From sequence record QB031382.1: 64,000 nucleotides of DNA, one strand, 5' to 3'. Made by a program: the position numbers and the translations under genes. The number at the start of each line of letters is the position of its first letter. Within the stretch, counting starts at the first letter, position 1. This DNA is from a phage. Shown here piece by piece: positions 6,404-48,129 of this stretch. The notes under the pieces are model-generated. The model was not told where the DNA came from. It saw only the letters and a program-made list of their open reading frames with translations, and made no database searches.

Positions 6404-8827
6404 ATGAGCATGTGGTCGTTCGATTTTGAGTCATCCGGTTTGCTGGAAGACCCAGATCTTTATTATCACTGCGGTCTGTTTAAAGAGTTGAATAAGAACC
6501 GTTTTATGCTGTTCCTTCCTCTAAATGACCGCACACACTACTCCGAGGAGGATATAGAAAAGGCTAAGAACTTCATTCTGGCAAAGAAAACTCTTTATAA
6601 AGATTTTGAAGTTCGCATAGCAGATTTTTCGGAGTTGGAAGGTTGGCTTACAGGAAATTCTGACTGGTCACCAACAGCTTTGAACTGCCATAACTGCTAC
6701 AGTTATGACTTTATGCTGATGGAAAGATTATCCGGTATTCATTTTGATATGTTCCGTGATCCTAAATGCATGGGGACTATCAACGACCACCAGGTTAACC
6801 TGTTTGATACGTTGGCGATGAGCCGAATCTTATGGCCTGATCGCCCTTTACCAAAAGGTTGTCCTGACTCCGTATTCAACCCGGTTACTAAGAAAATGCA
6901 GCCTGTTGGTCCTCACGGCCTTATGGCATGGGGCTACGCCCTTGGTAACCAGAAAGTTCAAATTGATGACTGGCGCGATCTTCCGTTGTGGAAGTATGTG
7001 GATCGTGTATTCGAGGACGTTATCATCCAGGAGCTGCTCTGGAAAGAGCTGGTAGCGGAATCAAAAGGTGTATTCTACGGCAAATCTGACATGCAGAACT
7101 TTATGTACGATCCTGCCAAAGAGAAGCCGAAAGGGTTCAAGAAGATCACCTGGAAGAACGCATTGCGCCGGGGTATGCTGCAACACTTCCTGATGGAGCT
7201 GCAGGCCCGTCAGGGTGTGTATTTTGACATAGATGGGGCTATTGCTTTACGTGACCGTTGCGATGCGTGGATGAAAGAAATCGCTGATCGTGTTGAACCA
7301 CAACTACCTTTAAAAGAGCTGTCAATGTCTCAGCGGCCCAAGTTCCCTGAAAAGCCGTTTAACCAAGATGGGACAATCTCCAATAATGGTTGGAAATGGT
7401 TAAAAGATAAGCTTGGCTATCCTGTGGACATGAGCGCTTTAGAGTTCAAAGCCCCACCTAAGCGAGCATTTACCTCCACAGGGGATGTCAGTAAGATGGG
7501 GATAAAATGGTGTGAAGAGATGGGCTGTAAAGACCCTGATAAGATGGCTGATTTCTTGAGGGGCTATATTAAGGGCACTTCCACACCACAACCTTTACCT
7601 AAAGAGCTAATGGATCAGGCAATAAGTGATCTACAGCAGAAGCGAATGCCTGACTGCAAGATACCTATGAAAATCAGCAATCAGGACGACATTAAGCGAT
7701 ACCTGATTAGTGCTGGTTGGCTTCCGACAATGTGGAGAACTAAGGATGTAACTAAAGACAGCAAGAAGAAAGCTCTACCTGATGCAGATGTTGATGCACG
7801 AGTATATGCATATATGGACGAGCTTTTAGAGTCAGAGTATTGTGACCTGATTATCAACTTCTGGAACAAAACTGATGCTAAGTTCCAGACAACCGTGCAC
7901 AAGTTCCGAAGCTTTCCTAACTCCGAAAGGATTAAAAAGGAAGTATTCGGGAAAATACGTAGAAAAGCTAGGGCACTTATTACTTCTCCGCAACTGAAAG
8001 ATACGTTTGGACACCTATGCCCTAATCTTGAAAAATTGAACGGAGAGATGGCTAAAGATATCGTCTTGTGGTTATCATTGCGAAACCGCAGATCGGTACT
8101 TGATCCAATTAAGGAGGATAAGGTTGATACTGGTCTTCTTAATCACCCACGTTTGAAGATTGACCATAAGCTTCCTGCTAAAAGTTCTGGGTTAACAAAC
8201 ACTTCCCGACAGAAACACAGTATTTGTGCGAACATGCCTAAACCATCTCCTAAAGTGGTTATGGGTAAAGAGATGCGTAGTCTGTGGGGTGTTCCTCCGG
8301 GATACTTTGAGATCGGTATTGACGGGTCCAACTTAGAGCAGCTTATCGGGGCTTGGGGTGCCTTTGAGTTCGACAACGGCTTGTATTATGATGTTGTAAG
8401 TAACGGGGACGCACACCAAAACAATGCTGAGGCATATACAAAAGTAGCAGGCAGAGAGGTGTCTCGTAACGACGGTAAACCTATCACGTATGGGGTTATG
8501 TACGGGGCACAAAAAGATAAAGTTGCAGACATGCTGGATATCTCTCCAGAGTTGGGGCAAAGGGTAATCGATGCGCTTTGGGATGCCAACCCCGGTCTTA
8601 AGGGGCGTAAAGAGGATCTAGAGAAATTCTGGGAAGCAACAGGTAAGAAATTTATCTACTCTTTTGACGGTCATGCCATTTGGACCCGCTCTAAACACTC
8701 TTTGCTTAATGCATATCAGCAAAATGGCGGTGCCTCGTTGTGCGACTTGGTCGGAATCCTCATGCACCACCAAATGGTGAAGCGTGGATGGTATGATGAG
8801 GGTGTTCGTCGTATTATTTATTACCAT
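6404..8827 (+). CDS. DNA polymerase, family A, exon 1
   Basis: Exo I SFDFESSGL, motif A GIDGSNLEQL, motif B KPITYGVMYG; exon ends at the CAT (His) codon 8825-8827 before the intron. Confidence 0.85.
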
Positions 8828-9155
8828 AAATAACATTGTGGCTTCGTGCAGTGATGCACGTCGAAAACCTCTTTAATTGACGGGAAGGCTAAGTTGACTT
8901 TTACACCTAAACATGGTAAAAGCTCAATATGCTAATCCGCAGCGAAGCATCCGAGAGGATGAACGTTCAGAGACTATCGAAAGCATAGCTCCAACATAGT
9001 TTGGTGTGAAGAAGCGAGTAGAGTAGGCCAGCAAGTGCGGTCGAAATGAGAGGTGCCTTGGTAACAAGGCAGTGAGATAGTCCGATCCATACGGGAAACT
9101 GTATGGCTATGCACGTAATGGTGCGGGGTAGCTTAACGACCTACCTGAACTATTG
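8828..9155 (+). ncRNA. group I self-splicing intron (no ORF) in the DNA polymerase gene
   Basis: Core elements P AATTGACGGGAA (8875-8886), Q AATCCGCAGC (8934-8943), R GTTCAGAGACTA (8965-8976), S GAGATAGTCC (9074-9083); U before 5' splice site pairs with guide GUGG 8838-8841; G9155 precedes 3' splice site. Confidence 0.75.
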
Positions 9156-9509
9156 GATGAGTACCAACTTCAAGTACCTGACACACCGAAGTATAAGACT
9201 GTGTACACCTTCGACACAATCGAAGAACTGGAAGCATTTAAGGCAGAGCAGGAGGCCAAACTTCATGTGTTCGACGGTCATAAGTACAAAAAGGCACGCA
9301 AGGATGAGGACGGAAACGAAGTGGTTGACAAGGACGGAAATACGGTATACGATCCTATCTTGAACGATGACGGAAAGCTTGAACTTATCTGGAGCCCTGT
9401 GGGCGAAATGGTGGTGCATTGCTTCTGGCAAGCTTCTAAAATGATGGGCGTTCCGTTCCAGATCACAGGTGAATACTTGTGTGGTCGTAATTGGGGTGAT
9501 TGTCACTAA
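9156..9509 (+). CDS. DNA polymerase, family A, exon 2
   Basis: Begins GAT GAG, completing motif C HDE after splicing; ends with PolA C-terminal motif GRNWGDCH. Confidence 0.8.
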   Translation, partial: DEYQLQVPDTPKYKTVYTFDTIEELEAFKAEQEAKLHVFDGHKYKKARKDEDGNEVVDKDGNTVYDPILNDDGKLELIWSPVGEMVVHCFWQASKMMGVPFQITGEYLCGRNWGDCH

Positions 9510-9558
9510 TGTAAACTATCAACACATGGAAGTGTTGTTGAGCAAAGAGGAGACTTTT

Positions 9559-9843
9559 ATGGTAGTAGAACCAACAAAAACATTTACATCCATGACTATC
9601 CCTGTTATTATGCAGGTGGAGTGTGTTCAGGTATCTCAAGTGTGGCCAGGCACTAAAATCCCAACAGGGCCTGATTTCTTTCAGGTTGGCAAAGTGTACA
9701 ATGTCTGGAAGGCACCAGATTGTTACCCTTTCATCAAAGATGACCGTGGAATGCTGTGGTATCTTGGAAATGATTTGACACTGCACCTTGGGAATGCTAT
9801 TATTGCAGTATTCAGACTTAACAAGAAGGAGACTGATCAATGA
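9559..9843 (+). CDS. hypothetical protein (KDDxG paralogue family)
   Basis: SD AAAGAGGAGA before ATG; motif FIKDDRGMLWY shared with neighbours. Confidence 0.5.
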   Translation: MVVEPTKTFTSMTIPVIMQVECVQVSQVWPGTKIPTGPDFFQVGKVYNVWKAPDCYPFIKDDRGMLWYLGNDLTLHLGNAIIAVFRLNKKETDQ

Positions 9844-10067
9844 CGACTTTGGTTAAAGCTACCTTTGTAGAAGAAAAGATGACAGACCTGTCATTCTTTA
9901 AAGAAGGAAAGACCTACGAGGTTTATTACGATAAAGCTCGTGCAAACAAGATGATTAAAGACGAGGAAGGGATTGCTTGGTTTATCTCCCATCTGGCAAA
10001 CGGTGAGTATCATATCTACGGAACCACCCTGCTTGCCAAGTTTGTAGCTGTTGAAGAGGACCTATGA
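9840..10067 (+). CDS. hypothetical protein (KDDxG paralogue family)
   Basis: ATGA overlap; motif MIKDEEGIAWF. Confidence 0.5.
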   Translation: MTTLVKATFVEEKMTDLSFFKEGKTYEVYYDKARANKMIKDEEGIAWFISHLANGEYHIYGTTLLAKFVAVEEDL

Positions 10068-10258
10068 AAGTAAAGTATCTGGCTGAGGGTATGAGTAGGT
10101 ATTTCACCCTTGGTGAAGAATATTGGCCCTTTACGGAAAATGGAGATGTATACGTGAAGGATGACCAAGGTGTGCCGTGGTTTCTGCACCATAATGGGTT
10201 GGGGTATTCCATCTACTGCGGTGCAGTGAACAACACAACCCTTGCAGAGTTTGTCTAG
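10064..10258 (+). CDS. hypothetical protein (KDDxG paralogue family)
   Basis: ATGA overlap; motif YVKDDQGVPWF. Confidence 0.5.
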   Translation: MKVKYLAEGMSRYFTLGEEYWPFTENGDVYVKDDQGVPWFLHHNGLGYSIYCGAVNNTTLAEFV

Positions 10259-10268
10259 AGGAGGCAGA

Positions 10269-10640
10269 ATGTTAGTAAAAGGTACCCACACAGTAAAGCA
10301 ACGTATTGAAGTTGAGATCGATGATTGTGAGCTGAAGCATATTTTGCGGTCATGCTCCAACGTTTTGCTCCTTAGTATTCTCCAGGAGCGAGCGGAGAAC
10401 GAGTTCTTAAATGCACTGGCAGGCCGTCCTGGGGACTTCTGTGTGCGTAAGCGTGAAGATCATAAGTCATGGTTGTGGGAAATCGATGCCGACTGGGATT
10501 ACCACAAAAATGAGGGCATAGATGAGCCTATTCGTGAATTGACAGATAAAGAGATTCAGATGTACAATGAAGTTTGTCATTGGGCAAAACGCCAACAAAT
10601 TTACCTCGACCCTGTGTGGATGATTGAAAATAGCCATTGA
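10269..10640 (+). CDS. hypothetical protein
   Basis: SD GAGGAGG before ATG (MLVKGTH). Confidence 0.5.
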   Translation: MLVKGTHTVKQRIEVEIDDCELKHILRSCSNVLLLSILQERAENEFLNALAGRPGDFCVRKREDHKSWLWEIDADWDYHKNEGIDEPIRELTDKEIQMYNEVCHWAKRQQIYLDPVWMIENSH

Positions 10641-10665
10641 CAAGAAGTAAGATTGGATATAAGAT
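10637..10665 (+). promoter_or_regulatory. sigma70-like promoter
   Basis: TTGACA, 17-bp spacer, TATAAG. Confidence 0.45.
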
Positions 10666-10716
10666 GCTTCACACAAACAGAGAGTTGATTTTTAAATAAT
10701 TGAGGAGACTGCCAAG

Positions 10717-10971
10717 ATGAAAATTACTTTGAAGCCAGAATGCGTTGCAAATGACCGAGCTTTTAAAGATTGCACAGTCGGTGCAATTTATGAAGCAGAG
10801 TTTTGTGAGAACCCTCTGGTAAAAGCCCTTCTGGAAGAAGGGGCCCCTTTATCACAAGAAGAGATTGATGAGCTGGAAAACTCAGCACAGTGCCTTACCT
10901 TTAAAGATGACGAAGGAGACTCTGTCTGGTGCACTGTTAATGAAGTAGTTTTTGTAAAACCTGAACATTAA
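10717..10971 (+). CDS. hypothetical protein (KDDxG paralogue family)
   Basis: SD GAGGAG upstream; motif TFKDDEGDSVW. Confidence 0.55.
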   Translation: MKITLKPECVANDRAFKDCTVGAIYEAEFCENPLVKALLEEGAPLSQEEIDELENSAQCLTFKDDEGDSVWCTVNEVVFVKPEH

Positions 10972-10974
10972 TAC

Positions 10975-11003
10975 TTGACAACAGTGATGTGGCCTAATAT
11001 AAT
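10975..11003 (+). promoter_or_regulatory. sigma70-like promoter
   Basis: TTGACA, 17-bp spacer, TATAAT. Confidence 0.5.
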
Positions 11004-11034
11004 GGCCCTATCGAAACGGAAGGGGATCACAGCA

Positions 11035-11307
11035 ATGACCAAACAATATCAACGAATTAAAGCCAAGGTTAAGCCAGACTACTTGGAGAAGGACTCTGCT
11101 TTTCGGGACTGCACCGCAGACAAAGTTTACACAGGGGCCGTCCTGTTGAACGACGAATTTGAAGTGGATGTGCTGGGTAAAGAGGCTACTATCAAGGACG
11201 ACCAGGGAGATTATGTTTGCTGCACCACACGCGAGCTAGAAATCTTAGAATACTTCGGTGAAATCTTCACCTCTCTTGATGATTACTTAGATGATGAGGC
11301 AGAGTGA
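11035..11307 (+). CDS. hypothetical protein (KDDxG paralogue family)
   Basis: Start moved to ATG after SD GGAAGGGG; paralogue of 10717-10971. Confidence 0.5.
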   Translation: MTKQYQRIKAKVKPDYLEKDSAFRDCTADKVYTGAVLLNDEFEVDVLGKEATIKDDQGDYVCCTTRELEILEYFGEIFTSLDDYLDDEAE

Positions 11308-11708
11308 TGAAAAACATTTGGGATATCAATATCTTTGAAGCCTCTGAGCTTGACGGTGCCGATGGGGTTATTATAGTTTCTGATGGAAAGGCAACACTGA
11401 CCTCTGGACTGACCTATGAGGACACTACCTACGCATTGGGCGATCTTGCCTTGTTGAAATCAACAGGCGACTCTCTGGAAGAACGTCTGCAAGGATTTGC
11501 CTTTAAAGAAGGCACAAACACCACACTGATGTGCACTACACGCACTGTTCAGTTGGGCAACGGGGTATATATGGTCATTGCAGTGTGCCCCAAATTCAGC
11601 AACATTAATAAAGATGATGCTGACGCTGTCAACGACGTGGTTGTCCTATTCGTGGGTGACGCTATGGCAGATCTGATGAATGCAGGAGAAGCAGCAAATG
11701 AAGACTGA
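11304..11708 (+). CDS. hypothetical protein
   Basis: ATGA overlap with upstream ORF. Confidence 0.5.
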   Translation: MMKNIWDINIFEASELDGADGVIIVSDGKATLTSGLTYEDTTYALGDLALLKSTGDSLEERLQGFAFKEGTNTTLMCTTRTVQLGNGVYMVIAVCPKFSNINKDDADAVNDVVVLFVGDAMADLMNAGEAANED

Positions 11709-12000
11709 AAACATTACACCAGAAGGATTCCTGAAAGTATACCGTGAACTATTGTATACCACAGAGGATAGTGTTCTAGAGTACCCAGAATATCTTTTGC
11801 TGTATAAGTATCTGCAGGAAGCTGGTGAAAATCTTCCAATTAGCGCAGAAGGTGGTCCAAACTGGGTCTACAGTGCATGGAGAAAGGTTGACATTCTCCC
11901 AGATCCCGGTAAAGATATGGTAGTTTGGCAGCTTATCAACAACATCGGGATTCCAATCTTTGATGAAGCTGTTAAAATCTATTTTGAACTTGACGATTAA
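11698..12000 (+). CDS. hypothetical protein
   Basis: ATG after SD GCAGGAGAAG. Confidence 0.45.
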   Translation: MKTENITPEGFLKVYRELLYTTEDSVLEYPEYLLLYKYLQEAGENLPISAEGGPNWVYSAWRKVDILPDPGKDMVVWQLINNIGIPIFDEAVKIYFELDD

Positions 12001-12017
12001 TATCAGGAGACCTTAAG

Positions 12018-12263
12018 ATGGCTGAAGTAGTTGCTCGTGCAGGACAGAAAGTGCGTTGTGTTGAAGTGGGTTTTGGTGGCAAAGGGTGTCAAAACTTGAC
12101 TCAAGGTAAGGAATACACTGTTGTTTCTGGCGGTGGTGACGAAAGTATTGTGTTCGATGACCATATTCTGGATGTTGAAAACTTTGAAATAATTGATGAT
12201 GATGGTGATCCGATCACCTGCCTGCTGAACGGGAGTTGGGGTACTTTCGAAGTAATTGGCTAA
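12018..12263 (+). CDS. hypothetical protein
   Basis: SD CAGGAGA upstream. Confidence 0.5.
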   Translation: MAEVVARAGQKVRCVEVGFGGKGCQNLTQGKEYTVVSGGGDESIVFDDHILDVENFEIIDDDGDPITCLLNGSWGTFEVIG

Positions 12264-12300
12264 CAAATATCTGTTGTAATTTACAGAAGGAGATGCTAAA

Positions 12301-12711
12301 ATGGTGTCTCCTTTATGTTGTTCAAATAAAATCGGAGATTCCATAATGGAACAAATGAACGATCAAGCGTCGGTTGCGATGAACGAGCAAGAACAACCTC
12401 AAGAATTTTTCTTAGGGTTAAGCAAAGATCAGGTGTCTCTCCTGCTAGTGCTCTCTTCTTTCATGGGGAGACTTCAGGAGCTCACACAACAACCAGAGGC
12501 TGAACAATTATTTCAGGCTCTGCGCGAAGAAGAAAAATATCGTCGTTTGGATTATGCCTTAGGTTGGGTAGCTCAGCAACGAGATATGCTAATGGCCCTT
12601 TCTGGGACGACAAGTTTTGCAATGGGCCTGTTGGCTCAAGTGCAGGACAAATTAATTCAAGCAGGGTTTGCACACACAGCAAACACCAACGAAGAACAAG
12701 GAGACAAATAA
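12301..12711 (+). CDS. hypothetical protein
   Basis: SD GAAGGAGA upstream. Confidence 0.5.
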   Translation: MVSPLCCSNKIGDSIMEQMNDQASVAMNEQEQPQEFFLGLSKDQVSLLLVLSSFMGRLQELTQQPEAEQLFQALREEEKYRRLDYALGWVAQQRDMLMALSGTTSFAMGLLAQVQDKLIQAGFAHTANTNEEQGDK

Positions 12712-13937
12712 TGAGCGTTATTCAACAATTTGCCAACCCGATGAATCCGCGTGAAACTGTTTTACTGGCTCACGGCATGATTAAACGTGTCAGCATCAAA
12801 CCTATCAAAGGTGCTGATCCTACAACAGGTATTAAAACCACTGTGTGGCAAGGTAAGAAAATCGAGTCCAGTCACACCATCTCTTTACTGATTTCTGAAC
12901 TGGATTCTTCTGATAACCTACTTCAAGGTGGTGAAGAAGTTTGGATCAGTATGGGTGATAAATTGCTCAAACCTGGTCATCAAGATTCCGTCTCTGTTAA
13001 AATTGATGACAAGTGGGAAACAGTAACGCCAGGATGGATCGTAAATATCCCTTTAAAGGCAAATGAGCATAACGGTAAGACCTACTACAAAGGCTCATTG
13101 GCTAAAATGGTTAAGCTGGGGGCAGGAGAGGCTCCAGCAGCTCCACAGCAACAAAAACAGCAACAAGGCACACAATCACAAGGCCAGAAGCAGAAACCTC
13201 AGCAGAATGCCAATCAGGACGTTTTACGCATCTATGGTGATGTGACTCAGATTGTTGGTAACGTGGTTACTGTCAATGACCACAAGATTGGCGAAGGTGC
13301 TATGGTTGTCTCCGATGAGCAGCTTAAAGACCTGGTGGTTGGCGGTCGTGTTGCAGCTATTGTTGACAAAGACACCGGGAATATTATCAGCGGCTTCAAG
13401 GCCTACCCGCCTAAAGCAGAGAACGGTACACAAGGTTCTGGTGGTAAGCGTAAATCCTCTTACGACCCCATTGGTGTAGAGACAGGGCACAGTATCAATG
13501 CGTTGCAGATCATTCTGGATCGCGGGTTTAAGATTGACAGCCCTTTAGATGTGGCTAAAACATTGCACGTGGTCACCATCGAGCTTAAGAAAGAGTACGC
13601 TCAAGCCACCAACCGGACTGAAGATGAAGTAGGTGCCAGTGTTGGTAACGCGGTATTGAATGCTTGTCGCCGTATTGACAAGAAAACGAAAGTTGATGAT
13701 TTTGCAGCAGCAATTACTGCAGAGGCAAAAGATGTCTTGACTAATCTTGCTGAACCGTTGTACGATTGGATCAAGAATGGTGCGGGGACTACTGAGCATC
13801 AAGAACCTCAAGCTGCCAAACAGGAAGCCACTCCACAGCAAAACACTGTAGATGCCCCTCCTGTAGATGATGACGGAGATGACCCGATGGATCAGAATCC
13901 GGCACAATACGCCTTTGATGATGACATTCCTTTTTAA
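12711..13937 (+). CDS. ssb: single-stranded DNA-binding protein
   Basis: Q/G-rich linker and acidic C-terminal tail AFDDDIPF as in bacterial SSB; start overlaps upstream stop. Confidence 0.7.
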   Translation: MSVIQQFANPMNPRETVLLAHGMIKRVSIKPIKGADPTTGIKTTVWQGKKIESSHTISLLISELDSSDNLLQGGEEVWISMGDKLLKPGHQDSVSVKIDDKWETVTPGWIVNIPLKANEHNGKTYYKGSLAKMVKLGAGEAPAAPQQQKQQQGTQSQGQKQKPQQNANQDVLRIYGDVTQIVGNVVTVNDHKIGEGAMVVSDEQLKDLVVGGRVAAIVDKDTGNIISGFKAYPPKAENGTQGSGGKRKSSYDPIGVETGHSINALQIILDRGFKIDSPLDVAKTLHVVTIELKKEYAQATNRTEDEVGASVGNAVLNACRRIDKKTKVDDFAAAITAEAKDVLTNLAEPLYDWIKNGAGTTEHQEPQAAKQEATPQQNTVDAPPVDDDGDDPMDQNPAQYAFDDDIPF

Positions 13938-31358: not shown

Positions 31359-31610
31359 TTAACGTTCTACAAAAATACCGTTCAGTTCAATAACCAGGAA
31401 TTTCTGGTCTTCACTATCGTCTCGTGCCAGAACCTCACAGACGTATCGGTCATCCCCATCATCATCGCAGTCAAATACAAGACTGAGGACTTTATCATGG
31501 TAAACCTTCGCCACTACCGCCTCGTAAGTATTGCCGATTGTGAATCCAAGATAATCTCCGATGCATTTGACAACAACATGGTCGCCAGCATTTAAGTCAA
31601 TCTTCGTCAT
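31359..31610 (-). CDS. hypothetical protein
   Basis: Start moved to ATG (MTKIDLN) after SD AAGGAG. Confidence 0.45.
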   Translation of the reverse strand: MTKIDLNAGDHVVVKCIGDYLGFTIGNTYEAVVAKVYHDKVLSLVFDCDDDGDDRYVCEVLARDDSEDQKFLVIELNGIFVER

Positions 31611-37376: not shown

Positions 37377-37571
37377 TTAGAATATTGCTTCTTCCATTGC
37401 ACCTGAGAGCAACAAAGAGGTAATATGGCTAACATTCATCTCAGACTCTACTTCCTCCCCTTTGAAAGGTTCGCGGCAGAATAGGACTGTTTCAGGACTT
37501 TTACTTCGAACAATATAATACAAATCATTCAAAGTGTTGTAGTAATAAGTGTTAAAACGTAAGTTTTTCAT
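37377..37571 (-). CDS. hypothetical protein
   Basis: Tool ORF overlapping upstream gene end. Confidence 0.4.
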   Translation of the reverse strand: MKNLRFNTYYYNTLNDLYYIVRSKSPETVLFCREPFKGEEVESEMNVSHITSLLLSGAMEEAIF

Positions 37572-37855
37572 TTTCTAGTCCCCTTCTTAGATTTTTGTGA
37601 AGAAACGCTTTCTGCAATACGAGACAGGCGTTCTTCTGAAGCTTTACCTACCCCAGGTTTCTTGAGCGGGTTATCTTTATGACCGCAATCCAATTGGATG
37701 CTAGATACCTCTCCAACCTTGTAAGTCAATTCTAGCAAAAGGTTGTCGTCCTTGTCAAATGTTTTTACGATAAATTTTTTATCGTCCTCCTGAACTTCAT
37801 ACCTAGTACCTGCAGTATACAGCATGGTGCCATCAGTGTAGGATATCCAAATCAT
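37568..37855 (-). CDS. hypothetical protein
   Basis: Tool ORF; overlapping start/stop. Confidence 0.45.
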   Translation of the reverse strand: MIWISYTDGTMLYTAGTRYEVQEDDKKFIVKTFDKDDNLLLELTYKVGEVSSIQLDCGHKDNPLKKPGVGKASEERLSRIAESVSSQKSKKGTRK

Positions 37856-38199
37856 TGCACCTCCTTCTGCTGCAACAGCATTAACTCTTTGTTGGAAATC
37901 TTTACTACTGTCTTTATTGTTCCATCTTCACGGAACCACGACCAGAATTCTACAGTGTCACCACTATCAAGCAAGGCATGACCATGGTAAAAATCCTTGT
38001 CCTTAGACAGTTTCTCATCTATATCTGCATCGACACATTCGTGATCCATAGCATTTTGCCTGAATGCATCGGTTATGCCAATGCATGCCTTGCTCTCAAG
38101 ACTGGCATATCCGATATCTTTTAATTCAGTTTCCCAAACCCAGAACCCTATAAAAGCCACAACAGCTACCCACATTAATATCGATTTAATCTTTGACAT
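37852..38199 (-). CDS. hypothetical protein with N-terminal signal/TM segment
   Basis: N-terminus MSKIKSILMWVAVVAFIGFWVW hydrophobic. Confidence 0.5.
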   Translation of the reverse strand: MSKIKSILMWVAVVAFIGFWVWETELKDIGYASLESKACIGITDAFRQNAMDHECVDADIDEKLSKDKDFYHGHALLDSGDTVEFWSWFREDGTIKTVVKISNKELMLLQQKEVQ

Positions 38200-41705: not shown

Positions 41706-42755
41706 TTAAGCTTCTTCGACAATTCCTGCACCCAGGATTTTTTCATTGAGCTCTTTTGCTGTTTTAATAATATTGTCCACCAGACGCTTGCGGGTCTTAT
41801 CTTTAACCTGAACTTCTTCACCTCCGTTCAGGGTGGTTTTCAATTGGGACAAAATGTCCTGAAGCTCTACCACAGAGAATCGCTGCAGATCTTCCGAGGT
41901 AATCTCACCCAGTGCAATCTTAACGGTCTCGCCACTCTCCATCTGCAGATTCAGGAACACAGTGTGAACATCACCTTTCACACCATTTGCTTTTGCAGAC
42001 TCAACAGCATGAACCAGCTCGTCCAGAGATGTGCATTGGTGAATCTCTGGCAGGCCTGCTTCACCTAGCACACCTTCTTCATCACTTTTTGCCAGAAGCT
42101 TTTTCGGTTTCTGTCCATTCTGAATGCGCTGAATGTTTTCATCGTCCAGAATAATAGCACCAGTTCGAGATGCCAGCTCTTCTCCATCTAACCACACTTC
42201 GCCGCCAGCTGTGATGGATGCGATCTCATCTTCTGTTAGCACTCCACCGTAGTATTTTTCGATCAGGCGTTCAAAACGTTTCTTCCAGTAGTTGACCTGG
42301 GTATTCATGTTCACACCGTTACCATAGGTGCCACCTTGATAATAGTGGAACATAAATTCTGTGTCCGGAGCCACAGTTCGTTCTTTGCAACCCAGCCATA
42401 AGATTGTTCCTGCTGAACAGCACATCCCTTCAGCGTGTACAACAACGCTTGCCTGAGACTCGCGGAATGCCTGCAAATACGCCATAGCAATGTGAACGCA
42501 ACCACCAGGGCTGTTAATGATTACACGGATACTTTCTTCTGGCTGAGCCATACGAATCGTCTGTAGACGAGACATATGATCTTGCAGGTCGTCCAAATCG
42601 TCAATATAAAGAACGTGGTCAACAACAGGTGTTGGGTAGCTGTATGTTTCCATAATACCACCAGGCATACCAAACATTTTGTTACTCATAGGTTCGAAAC
42701 CGTTCTGTTTTTCTTTCATGCCGTGTACCATGGTGCTGCGAGGTGTTAAATTCAT
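41706..42755 (-). CDS. ClpP-like serine protease with about 170-aa C-terminal extension
   Basis: VIINSPGG, GMCCSAGT (Ser) and MFHYYQGG (His) match ClpP catalytic regions. Confidence 0.7.
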   Translation of the reverse strand: MNLTPRSTMVHGMKEKQNGFEPMSNKMFGMPGGIMETYSYPTPVVDHVLYIDDLDDLQDHMSRLQTIRMAQPEESIRVIINSPGGCVHIAMAYLQAFRESQASVVVHAEGMCCSAGTILWLGCKERTVAPDTEFMFHYYQGGTYGNGVNMNTQVNYWKKRFERLIEKYYGGVLTEDEIASITAGGEVWLDGEELASRTGAIILDDENIQRIQNGQKPKKLLAKSDEEGVLGEAGLPEIHQCTSLDELVHAVESAKANGVKGDVHTVFLNLQMESGETVKIALGEITSEDLQRFSVVELQDILSQLKTTLNGGEEVQVKDKTRKRLVDNIIKTAKELNEKILGAGIVEEA

Positions 42756-44593: not shown

Positions 44594-45067
44594 TTAGTCA
44601 ATCTGAACCCAACCGCCTGCTACCTTTTTAAACATTCTTTGGTTATCACTACCTCTGAAAGGTTTTTTGGTTGGTAAATCTTTTACATACTTTCCATCAA
44701 TGACGATATCAGCCAGTTTAAGAACATCACTAGAGATATGCTCAAATGTGAACCCAGTATACACAAGAATAGTTTTCTTGTCACCAAACTTTTCCTTAAT
44801 TCTCCTCATAAGGTCAATAATACCTGGCTCATTATAAGTAGCCAAAGGCTCTCCACCAAGTAAAGAAATACCGCATACAGATTCATTGTCTAAATCCAAC
44901 AAAATTTTCTGCAAATCTTCTTCGGTGAACTCTCTTCCTTTATCTTTTGACCAAAATGCTTGATTAAAGCAACCGGGACAAGCGTGTGGGCACCCAGATA
45001 CCCACAAAGCTGTCCTAATACCTGGCCCCTCGGTGTAAGATATCTCTGTATACCCGACAATATTCAT
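44594..45067 (-). CDS. nrdG: anaerobic ribonucleotide reductase activating protein (radical SAM)
   Basis: GPGIRTALWVSGCPHACPGCFN cluster; start set at second ATG (MNIVGY). Confidence 0.8.
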   Translation of the reverse strand: MNIVGYTEISYTEGPGIRTALWVSGCPHACPGCFNQAFWSKDKGREFTEEDLQKILLDLDNESVCGISLLGGEPLATYNEPGIIDLMRRIKEKFGDKKTILVYTGFTFEHISSDVLKLADIVIDGKYVKDLPTKKPFRGSDNQRMFKKVAGGWVQID

Positions 45068-45180
45068 ACATACTCCGCATCGCATTTAGGACAATGCCAA
45101 ATAAAATCGTCCAGTGCCTTACACCAACGAAGATTGCAATGACAACCACACTTGCAAATTTTATAAATACCTGTAGACAT
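45064..45180 (-). CDS. small zinc-ribbon protein (38 aa)
   Basis: Hand-translated MSTGIYKICKCGCHCNLRWCKALDDFIWHCPKCDAEYV; SD GGAGGT; stop overlaps nrdG start. Confidence 0.4.
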   Translation of the reverse strand: MSTGIYKICKCGCHCNLRWCKALDDFIWHCPKCDAEYV

Positions 45181-45243
45181 GCTGCACCTCCTAGTTTACT
45201 GTGTGACAACAATATGCCACATCCTTGTGACTTTTGTCAAGTA

Positions 45244-46206
45244 TCAGCAACCACAACTTCCGTAGTGCTTAACCCGTTCTATAACCTCCGCTTGCTTACC
45301 TTTATTGTAAGGACGGGAGTTTGGACTGGACAGATACCCGGATACACGTCTAATCACACTGATCGTTCCCTCTTCATGGTTTCCACACTCTGGGCATACA
45401 AAGCCTTTAGCTGTTGCACTGAACTCACCAGAGAATCCACACTTAAGACATTTATCCACAGGCTGGTTAATACCAAAATACATAATGTGTTTATATCCGA
45501 AATCAACAAGAGCTTCCAAAGCATCTAAGTTGTTTTTCAGATTTGGTGTCTCTATGTACCCAATGTTGCCACCAGAGGAGATCATAGCAAAACCTTCCTC
45601 ATACTTCCACTTATCAAAAGGCGAGCTATTGATCCATACTGGCTGATGGAAACTGTTGGTGAGGTATTCATGCTCGTGCTTCAACACTTCTGGGTATTCA
45701 CGATCCAGACAGGTTGCAGCTTTATAGCATAAACTCTCAGAAGGTGTGCCGTACAAGCTAAATGCTAGTCCACTTTCCTTCTTGTATCGCTCACAAGCAT
45801 CTTTCATGTGCTGAAGGATTCCAAGAGCTAAAGCCTTGTCACCCTCTCTGCCCAAAATCTGACAGGTTTCATACACACCAATATACCCAATACTGATGGA
45901 AGCGTACCCGTCATAGAAGAGTTTATCGATACTCTCTTCAGGATCCAGGCGAGCAAGAGCTCCTTCACACCACATGATAGGGTTATGCCCTGCCTTTGTT
46001 CCTTTTAGACGGTTAACTCTTACAAGGTGAGCCTCATATGCCAAATCCAAATATTCGTCAAGAACTGCAAAGAAATCAACACCTTCCGTTTTAGCTTTTG
46101 CCGCAATCATTGGTAGGTTAAGGCTAACAACACCCAAGTTGAATCTGCCAAGGTATTTCTCCTCGCCTGTTACAGGATCGCTATATTTCGATAAGAAACT
46201 TCTACA
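45244..46206 (-). CDS. nrdD: anaerobic ribonucleotide reductase NrdD, exon 2
   Basis: Begins CRSFLSKYSDP; C-terminal zinc ribbon and glycyl-radical motif RRVSGYLSS. Confidence 0.8.
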   Translation of the reverse strand, partial: CRSFLSKYSDPVTGEEKYLGRFNLGVVSLNLPMIAAKAKTEGVDFFAVLDEYLDLAYEAHLVRVNRLKGTKAGHNPIMWCEGALARLDPEESIDKLFYDGYASISIGYIGVYETCQILGREGDKALALGILQHMKDACERYKKESGLAFSLYGTPSESLCYKAATCLDREYPEVLKHEHEYLTNSFHQPVWINSSPFDKWKYEEGFAMISSGGNIGYIETPNLKNNLDALEALVDFGYKHIMYFGINQPVDKCLKCGFSGEFSATAKGFVCPECGNHEEGTISVIRRVSGYLSSPNSRPYNKGKQAEVIERVKHYGSCGC

Positions 46207-46968: not shown

Positions 46969-48129
46969 ACCCATGCTTGTTACTTTGCCGTCTGTTGAAC
47001 CTGTCACTTTACGATTTAGCGGAACAGAAACAAAGTCAGGATAAATCCGCTCTGCAGAGCATTCTAAGGCCAATCGTTTCAAATCATAGTTAGGATCCCC
47101 AGGGTTCATGTTGACACCCTCCTCTAAGAAGAACAACACTTTAGGGAACACAGGTGTGATCCGTTCTTCACCAAGACCCATTTTGTGAACTTTCAAGTAG
47201 TTTTTGGTAATCATTCTACCAAAGACCGAAGTATCCAGCCCTAAACTTAATGTGATGAATGGGGTTTGCCCGTTGACAGAAGTTAACGTATTGATTTGGT
47301 AGAGCAAAGTTTGCATACTATCAAACACGTCTTTATCTGTCATTTGCATTGCAACAGTCTCAGCATCTGGCAACCAATGTTCCTGACAAAATTTAAGGTT
47401 CTTCTCATAAGTTGCTTCAGCATACTGTGCCAAATAATGATCAATATGACTCATGGTCTGACCGCCATATTGAGCACTAGCTACTGCACTAGAGATTTGG
47501 CTAAGGATTGTTGTTGCAACCCCTATTGACTTCGGCTTACTGACATGGGCGTTGCCAATGTTGAATCCGTTTTCCAGCATATCCGGATAATTTACCAAAC
47601 AACAGTTTGTTAACGGACTGATCAGGTAGTCAAGATCATGCACATGGATGAAGCCTTTGTTGTGCTCTTCAGAGACACGGTCTGGCAGGATCTGTGTTGA
47701 TGCAAGATGTTTGCTAAGGATGCCTGCAAGCAGGTCACGATGAGTATGCACATGATTAGTAGGCTTATTTGCGTTTTCTTTTGTAAATTCATCACAAGTA
47801 CGATCCAAGAATCCGCTAATATCTGCAAGCAGTTTTCCACCTGCCTCTCTGTTATTATCTCTTGTCTGTCTATACTGGATGTATCCTCTGGCTGCACATT
47901 TTAAACCCATATCCATAAGAGCATCTTCAACAAGGATATGGATATTTTTTACAGAGATCGTGCACTGGTCGGTTGGCAGATTGTTGGCAACAACTTCATT
48001 AACCGCGCAGGCAATCCGGTAAGCTTCTTCTTCAGTATGTCCAGACTCAAGTAAGGCGGACTCTGCCGCCTTGATCACCTTAATTCCGTTATAAAACTCT
48101 TCTCTACCGTCCCGTTTTACAACTTTCAC
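46969..48129 (-). CDS. nrdD: anaerobic ribonucleotide reductase NrdD, exon 1
   Basis: N-terminal ATP-cone-like region; ends ...KVTSMG before intron; in-frame stop two codons into intron. Confidence 0.8.

Follow-up and report, generated by a model that had tools for sequence, protein, structure and literature searches.

The 64,000-nucleotide stretch of phage DNA analyzed here (sequence record QB031382.1, hereafter the window) comes from an rV5/FV3-like Vequintavirus. Its region 9000–12400 shares 97.5% identity with Escherichia phage FV3 and 89–97% with more than 110 further records, all of them from the genus Vequintavirus (rV5-like myophages). In this region a preliminary description had recognized a tandem array of five paralogous genes for small proteins, with starts at 9559, 9840, 10064, 10717 and 11035. 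All five open reading frames (ORFs) are present and are annotated in FV3 and in other Vequintavirus genomes; we refer to them as genes A to E, and to a further member, which had been overlooked and lies outside the interval then reported, as gene F. Genes A, B, C and F encode diverged paralogues of one small all-β module of approximately 60–75 amino acids, and D and E form a second clear paralogue pair whose products are strongly acidic. The six genes are as follows.

9559–9843, plus strand: gene A, 94 amino acids; module paralogue with a longer N-terminal part; motif IKDDRGMLW; phrog_12922 (1e-67)
9840–10067, plus strand: gene B, 75 amino acids; module paralogue; ATGA overlap with A; motif IKDEEGIAW
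10064–10258, plus strand: gene C, 64 amino acids; module paralogue; ATGA overlap with B; motif VKDDQGVPW; phrog_12802
10717–10971, plus strand: gene D, 84 amino acids; member of the D/E pair; AFKDCT and FKDDEGDSVW; phrog_12544; net charge −12
11035–11307, plus strand: gene E, 90 amino acids; member of the D/E pair; AFRDCT and IKDDQGDYVC; phrog_11936; net charge −12.5
12018–12263, plus strand: gene F, 81 amino acids; LTQGKEYTV, IIDDDGDPI and FEVIG in that order; phrog_4927 (1.6e-26); net charge −10

The motif said to unite the five ORFs, [FIV]KD[DE]xGxxW, is matched strictly by A, B and C only; the tryptophan of D is displaced by one residue further on, and E has no tryptophan at this place. 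The core of the motif, [FIVLM]KD[DE]xG, has exactly five matches in the six reading frames of the window, one in each of the genes A to E, a distribution far from chance. The AF[KR]DCT sequence is likewise common to D and E, as had been described. In a variant of gene A found in other Vequintavirus contigs (P0031), an 11-residue internal duplication precedes the motif, so that CHPFIKEKAPN is followed by CYPFIKDD.

Two kinds of comparison establish the paralogy. First, Smith–Waterman scores judged as z against 1000 shuffles are high within the groups (A–B 9.5, B–C 11.5, A–C 5.1 and D–E 14.5), and all comparisons of A, B or C with D or E remain at z ≤ 2.3, none of them significant. Second, in scans of the PHROG families A, B and C match each other's families and share phrog_3249 and phrog_3523, and D and E produce reciprocal cross-hits at 8e-6 to 9e-6 (phrog_12544 and phrog_11936) and have phrog_17459 in common. 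The claim of five paralogues in one family thus holds within A/B/C and within D/E; between the groups the pairwise scores do not carry it, and the best profile–profile comparison, made with hhalign, gives a probability of 33%. Within the pair, D differs from E by an insert of approximately 16 residues that is predicted to be helical, and the E product ends in an acidic C-terminal tail.

Run with HMMER over the full set of 1.84 billion representative proteins, the A/B/C profile gave 13 matches, five of which are Vequintavirus-type orthologues (E < 1e-10). The 67-amino-acid protein P0078 is a single-module homologue of the B family, and six longer proteins (P0077, P0079, P0081, P0082, P0083 and P0084; 179–571 amino acids) carry two to five tandem copies of the module each. 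P0082 consists of two modules and a C-terminal DUF3310 domain (4e-21) and matches PHROGs annotated as nucleotide kinase. Another of the matches, P0080, a β-propeller of the Vgb-lyase type, was rejected as a family member, being a motif artefact of the profile. A second hidden Markov model (HMM) was built from 21 repeat units cut from the six multi-module proteins and contained no window sequence; searched against all 754 six-frame segments of the window it found C (1.4e-10), F (1.3e-8), B (3.6e-8) and A (2.6e-7), the next-best segment scoring 0.085. Since F had been used in building none of the profiles, its match, the second best of the 754, constitutes an independent test. The family of F, phrog_4927, is also matched by the repeat proteins P0079, P0083 and P0084. 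The statement that the array genes match no recognizable family does not hold for A, B and C, which together with F are copies of a module widespread among phages; its PHROGs here are 12922, 12623, 12802 and 4927, and 3523, 3249 and 10169 connect them.

In the whole genome of the Vequintavirus isim the remote-unit HMM found the same four genes and isim_172 (E = 1.1e-5), a 78-amino-acid protein encoded between nrdD and nrdG (MN850597.1, 121873–122109), as is the case in some genomes of the genus, and annotated as "putative minor capsid protein"; a fold search of the BFVD with the B model described below returned the same protein independently. Its counterpart is missing from the window, where nrdG follows directly on nrdD (44594–45085, minus strand). 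A word-indexed search with an alignment of the superfamily added a Lactobacillus-phage subgroup only, with no Pfam domains; a remote module gene on a Lactobacillus-associated phage contig lies among small ORFs beside primase and helicase genes. The A/B/C and D/E alignments, searched by word index against 5.8 billion proteins, found Vequintavirus orthologues only, and tblastn and blastn searches of 50,697 phage records gave matches from the genus only, at ≥80% identity. Scans of all ORFs with Pfam and NCBIfam returned nothing at threshold, and sequence searches of the PDB with three profiles gave no real match. Two minus-strand ORFs of the window that appear module-like by eye were rejected: that at 31362–31610 (VVVKCIGDYLGFTIGNTYEAV ... 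DCDDDGDDRYVCEV) is marginal against B (z = 3.4), that at approximately 37571–37860 (LYTAGTRYEVQ ... FDKDDN) has no pairwise signal, and neither is significant by HMM (E = 0.16–0.47).

An AlphaFold2 model of B, made with the A/B/C alignment, has a predicted local distance difference test score (pLDDT) of 93 and a predicted template modelling score (pTM) of 0.81. It contains six strands (residues 2–10, 25–31, 36–40, 46–48, 56–60 and 64–70) and a short helix in the long loop between β1 and β2. In the model F20 and G23 stand at the end of this loop, Y26 lies in β2, K40-D-E-E-G44 forms the hairpin turn between β3 and β4, W47 lies in β4, and A66 and F68 lie in β6. The conserved F-x-x-G-x-x-Y is thus predicted to run from the end of the β1–β2 loop into β2, and the terminal hydrophobic strand of the family corresponds to β6, a placement that suggests a structural signature and not a catalytic site.

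The predicted B structure is a small six-stranded β-barrel with a prominent β1–β2 loop and can be superposed on the structure of Gp54 of Escherichia phage Bas11 (JohannLBurckhardt; PDB 9AXB); the bas11_0054 product was confirmed as the protein sequence of 9AXB and 9ERV. We describe the module of A, B, C and F as a predicted β-barrel of the Gp54 type, and at least four genes of the array form one family that is predicted to have this fold, which the authors of the Gp54 study call very rare (PMC11578894). A pairwise alignment places F20, G23, G44 and W47 of B on F21, G24, G40 and W43 of Gp54, in register and with a marginal Smith–Waterman score (z = 3.06). Gp54 is a non-essential phage protein to which no function has been assigned, and it triggers the fused toxin–antitoxin defence system CapRelSJ46 by partly unfolding and building a hybrid β-sheet with it; G24 and W43 are listed among the CapRel contacts, and close Gp54 homologues with three substitutions do not activate CapRelSJ46 (Zhang et al., Nature 2024, PMC11578894). 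A Foldseek search of the PDB with the B model gave no significant match and did not return 9AXB, nor did the PDB profile searches, so that the link to the Gp54 fold rests on one program and one predicted model. Against the BFVD, Foldseek returned many small uncharacterized proteins at template modelling scores of 0.7–0.8, from Drexlerviridae, Vequintavirus and relatives such as phAPEC8 and CR9.

Nine genomes were compared (the window, FV3 and seven others at 89–96% DNA identity), and genes A to F are intact in every one of them. Ratios of nonsynonymous to synonymous substitution rates (dN/dS), calculated according to Nei and Gojobori, are lowest for A (0.02), followed by E (0.06), D (0.08), C (0.10), F (0.15) and B (0.16). 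The six are real genes: they code for proteins, evolve under purifying selection and are retained throughout the genus. In PVP-SE1, KNP2, Hena1, CR8 and W70, five phages of other Vequintavirinae lineages, the 6 kb that follow the polymerase gene contain neither a module gene nor a D/E gene, which marks the array as a genus-specific accessory block. An IMG/VR scan with the D/E alignment added three diverged contigs of a sister clade (L020–L022; 3300045988_133607, _159287 and _140627), in which D is 52–54% identical. All three possess homologues of D, E, X2, X3 and F (X genes are listed below), they have two module genes before X1 and not three, and contig L021 has an extra module-like gene of 136 amino acids between D and E (1785–2195). 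The copy number of the array thus changes over time. Sixteen records labelled "Campylobacter phage" (MG0656xx, e.g. MG065662.1; at least one UNVERIFIED) are approximately 90% identical to the rV5-like phages of E. coli in this region and are probably mislabelled or contaminated.

The array lies among the following genes and other features, two promoter-like sites included.

6404–8833, plus strand: ORF of DNA polymerase exon 1, 809 amino acids
8818–9105, plus strand: group I intron (Rfam RF00028, 75.6 bits)
9153–9509, plus strand: ORF of DNA polymerase exon 2, 118 amino acids, corresponding to the C-terminal part of phrog_8888
10269–10640, plus strand: gene X1, 123 amino acids; co-transcribed non-member; phrog_6273 (1e-51)
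10637–10665, plus strand: sigma-70-like promoter site of D, TTGACA-17-TAAGAT, 10 of 12 consensus matches (pattern only)
10975–11003, plus strand: sigma-70-like promoter site of E, TTGACA-17-TATAAT, 12 of 12 consensus matches (pattern only)
11307–11708, plus strand: gene X2, 133 amino acids (134 from a GTG at 11304)
11698–12000, plus strand: gene X3, 100 amino acids; Pfam DUF7238
12711–13937, plus strand: SSB-like gene, 408 amino acids; protein C-terminus DDDIPF

The family-A DNA polymerase gene is interrupted by the group I intron, and its coding sequence does not end at 8833 but reaches 9509 in exon 2. The array had been placed directly downstream of the polymerase; this is correct with respect to exon 2, not with respect to the ORF that ends at 8833. 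In some relatives, among them ECP2303 and O157 typing phage 14, the polymerase gene is uninterrupted (2778 nucleotides), and in FV3 and isim the gap contains an ORF for an HNH endonuclease that the window does not have. X1, which separates C from D, is unrelated to the array genes (it does not match the module HMMs) and is more widely conserved, with a counterpart in gp21 of PVP-SE1, whose annotation mentions similarity to rv5_gp216. The nine genes that run from A through X1, X2 and X3 to F are probably rv5_gp219 to rv5_gp211 in the rV5 numbering, as deduced from two annotation notes in PVP-SE1. At the far end, the relative JLBYU08 annotates the counterpart of 12711–13937 as a putative single-stranded DNA-binding protein (SSB), and the DDDIPF end of the protein resembles the C-terminal tail of E. 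coli SSB.

Expression had been proposed to be translationally coupled or promoter-driven, and signals for both are present. A and B, and B and C, overlap as ATGA, and X1 begins 10 nucleotides beyond C, behind a GGAGG; a consensus scan places sigma-70-like sites directly upstream of D and of E. A–B–C–X1 are thus translationally coupled, and D and E each possess a promoter-like site of their own. Because the perfect site of E lies inside the longer E ORF annotated in FV3, translation more likely starts at the ATG at 11035. According to the rV5 genome paper, these genes belong to a transcription unit apart from the late genes (27–66), and sigma-70-like promoters occur across the genome (PMC3606486). 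Genes A to F are probably transcribed by host RNA polymerase along with the replication genes; a literature search for Vequintavirus expression data found nothing useful, and the supplements of rV5 proteomics contain no matching gene names. No signal peptide or membrane segment is obvious by eye in the translations, on which no dedicated signal-peptide predictor was run. Of the marks of an SH3b-type protein, neither an obvious export signal nor an endolysin fusion nor adjacency to an endolysin gene was found, the neighbours being replication genes.

Taken together, these data lead us to favour, at a probability of roughly 55%, the reading that A to F form a Vequintavirus-specific block of modules of the Gp54 type, with D and E as a probable offshoot, that serve as protein-binding host-takeover or counter-defence factors. 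All members are acidic, with net charges from −4 to −12.5 (−4 for B and C; −10 to −12.5 for D, E and F). They would be small, acidic, non-enzymatic proteins whose expression coincides with that of the early or middle replication genes and which act as stoichiometric protein-binding modules, each paralogue perhaps with its own host or defence target, and as accessory factors in host takeover or in countering defence. Like Gp54, they could also be recognized by immune proteins of the CapRel type.

Several points weigh against this reading. The family and Gp54 show no sequence link by hhalign (P = 0.34–0.46), and the module HMMs miss gp54 in the Bas11 genome. The proposed protein-binding and counter-defence role is drawn by analogy from Gp54, itself a protein without an assigned native role. 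Diversifying selection was looked for in the nine genomes and none was seen, so that the low dN/dS values do not point to an arms race. Both promoter-like sites were recognized from the sequence pattern only, and the early timing is putative. With respect to D and E, the module HMMs score both at E = 1–6, which is not significant, and the AlphaFold2 model of D, with a pLDDT of 48, is unusable for a fold search. Finally, KDDxG is a generic tight β-turn, so that the common motif may be convergent, and the A/B/C profile also drew in the unrelated propeller P0080 through DDxGxxWF.

The last of these points also count for a different account of D and E, in which their fold is unrelated to that of A, B, C and F, the shared KD[DE]xG is a convergent tight β-turn, and the cluster merely brings neighbouring small β-rich genes together; the supposed array of five would then be two unrelated families plus other genes. 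The insignificant pairwise scores between the groups would fit, as would a first hhalign comparison of A/B/C with D/E that aligned only the 14-residue motif (probability 1.8%) and the ranks of E and D with the remote-unit HMM (10th and 13th of the 754 segments, at 1.2 and 3.8). Set against this, the hhalign result for D/E and the module profile strengthens as the profiles become richer, from P = 0.011 through 0.0022 to 4.4e-4 (the 33% probability cited above). The alignment is also co-linear over two separate motifs, with AF[KR]DCTxGxxY on FTvGKxY and KDDxG on IxDDxG, and stays in register across the insert of D. Its score of 24.2 was reached by none of 300 column-permuted controls and, with either of two block sizes, by one of 200 block-shuffled controls; the latter keep the local motifs and destroy their order. 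In addition D, E and the repeat protein P0084 all match the N-terminal part of phrog_17459, and the window holds no further copy of the core motif. The link between A/B/C and D/E is suggestive. We consider it fairly probable that D and E are highly diverged derivatives of the A/B/C/F module, and somewhat unlikely that the two groups are unrelated.

The location of the array, between polymerase exon 2 and the SSB-like gene, would be explained if the modules were replication accessory factors, that is, small SH3- or OB-like barrels whose binding partners are nucleic acid, nucleotides, or one of the phage proteins polymerase, SSB and helicase. This would also explain the fusion of two modules to DUF3310 in P0082 with its nucleotide-kinase PHROG matches, DUF3310 being the domain at the C-terminus of nucleotide kinase of the T7 gp1.7 type, and the positions of isim_172 between nrdD and nrdG and of the remote member beside primase and helicase genes are in its favour. 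The acidity of all members argues against direct binding of nucleic acid, however, and in sister genera unrelated genes hold the same position, which indicates that these proteins are not core parts of the replisome. Gp54 of Bas11, moreover, is dispensable (PMC11578894). We regard a replication or nucleotide-metabolism role, the chief rival to the favoured reading, as distinctly unlikely.

It is highly improbable that the modules are virion proteins (minor capsid or decoration) or SH3b-like, cell-wall-binding lysis accessories, as the annotation of isim_172, weak matches to phrog_14592 ("virion structural protein") and the weak similarity of F and two repeat proteins to DUF7244 of the SH3 clan might suggest, since the genes lie in a non-late unit with replication genes and far from the structural and lysis genes, A to F are not among the virion proteins that the rV5 genome paper names in its text (PMC3606486), every DUF7244 score stays under the gathering threshold, and proteins with no obvious signal or membrane segment probably cannot reach the peptidoglycan.

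A broader extension of the favoured reading, as Gp54-type protein-binding modules, is unlikely enough that we offer it tentatively: the rare Gp54 fold may be the core of a large, undescribed phage superfamily with the signature FTxGKxY ... KDDxG ... W. Such a superfamily would be represented several times per genome in Vequintavirus and, judging from fold matches and weak HMM matches, in Drexlerviridae, and would occur also in a Lactobacillus-associated phage; its members would be genes standing alone or in tandem arrays, repeats within one protein, or fusions. The module would be a diversifiable protein-binding scaffold directed at host or defence proteins, one that CapRel-type sensors learned to recognize, and D and E would be its acidic offshoot. 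In the Bas11 genome the module HMM matches gp79 (47216–47653), gp71 (45147–45338), gp48 (37578–37943, minus strand) and gp61 (42369–42554) weakly (E = 4e-5 to 0.01), so T1-like phages may carry several members detectable by sequence beyond Gp54.

If the rV5-type genes do share the Gp54 fold, Gp54 would no longer be an orphan, and comparison could draw on conserved residues, on several paralogues in each genome, on forms with repeats or fusions, and on a position that recurs among early and replication genes. The array genes would be ready candidates for triggers or inhibitors of defence systems, and Vequintavirus members of the BASEL collection already serve in defence-system screens. Approximately six genes per genome now called "hypothetical protein" could gain an annotation in more than 100 sequenced phages.

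Three known systems can be compared with the array. Gp54 resembles its products in length (66 amino acids against 64–94), in being mildly acidic and in the alignment of the conserved F, G, G and W noted above, and its gene too is small, has no assigned role and lies among other small hypothetical genes. It differs in sequence (14% identity, the hhalign values already given and a separate PHROG, 7421) and in lacking the KDD turn, and it is encoded by a single gene of a T1-like siphovirus, not in an array adjacent to a polymerase gene.

The standalone DUF7244 proteins of T1-like phages (Drexlerviridae), called "SH3" proteins, are likewise small phage β-barrels of the SH3-like class, and F (15.6 bits, E = 0.017) and the repeat proteins P0083 and P0084 (21.8 bits, 2e-4) match them weakly. 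These scores are under the gathering threshold of 27 bits, A to E give no match, and classical SH3 barrels have five strands whereas the B model has six. The DUF7244 genes adjoin the lysis cassette, and their products, of unknown function, have been proposed to modulate endolysin (PMC13164509); this lysis-module context differs from the replication-module context here.

The multi-repeat phage proteins and their PHROGs (3523, 4927, 10169, 3249 and 16833) contain the module of A, B, C and F by sequence, with the consensus FTxGKxYxV ... IxDDxG ... W/Y, and match reciprocally by profile at 1e-5 to 1e-10. In contrast to the window, they hold two to five modules in one polypeptide or fuse the module to DUF3310 or to helical C-terminal domains; in the window each copy of the module is a separate, translationally coupled gene.

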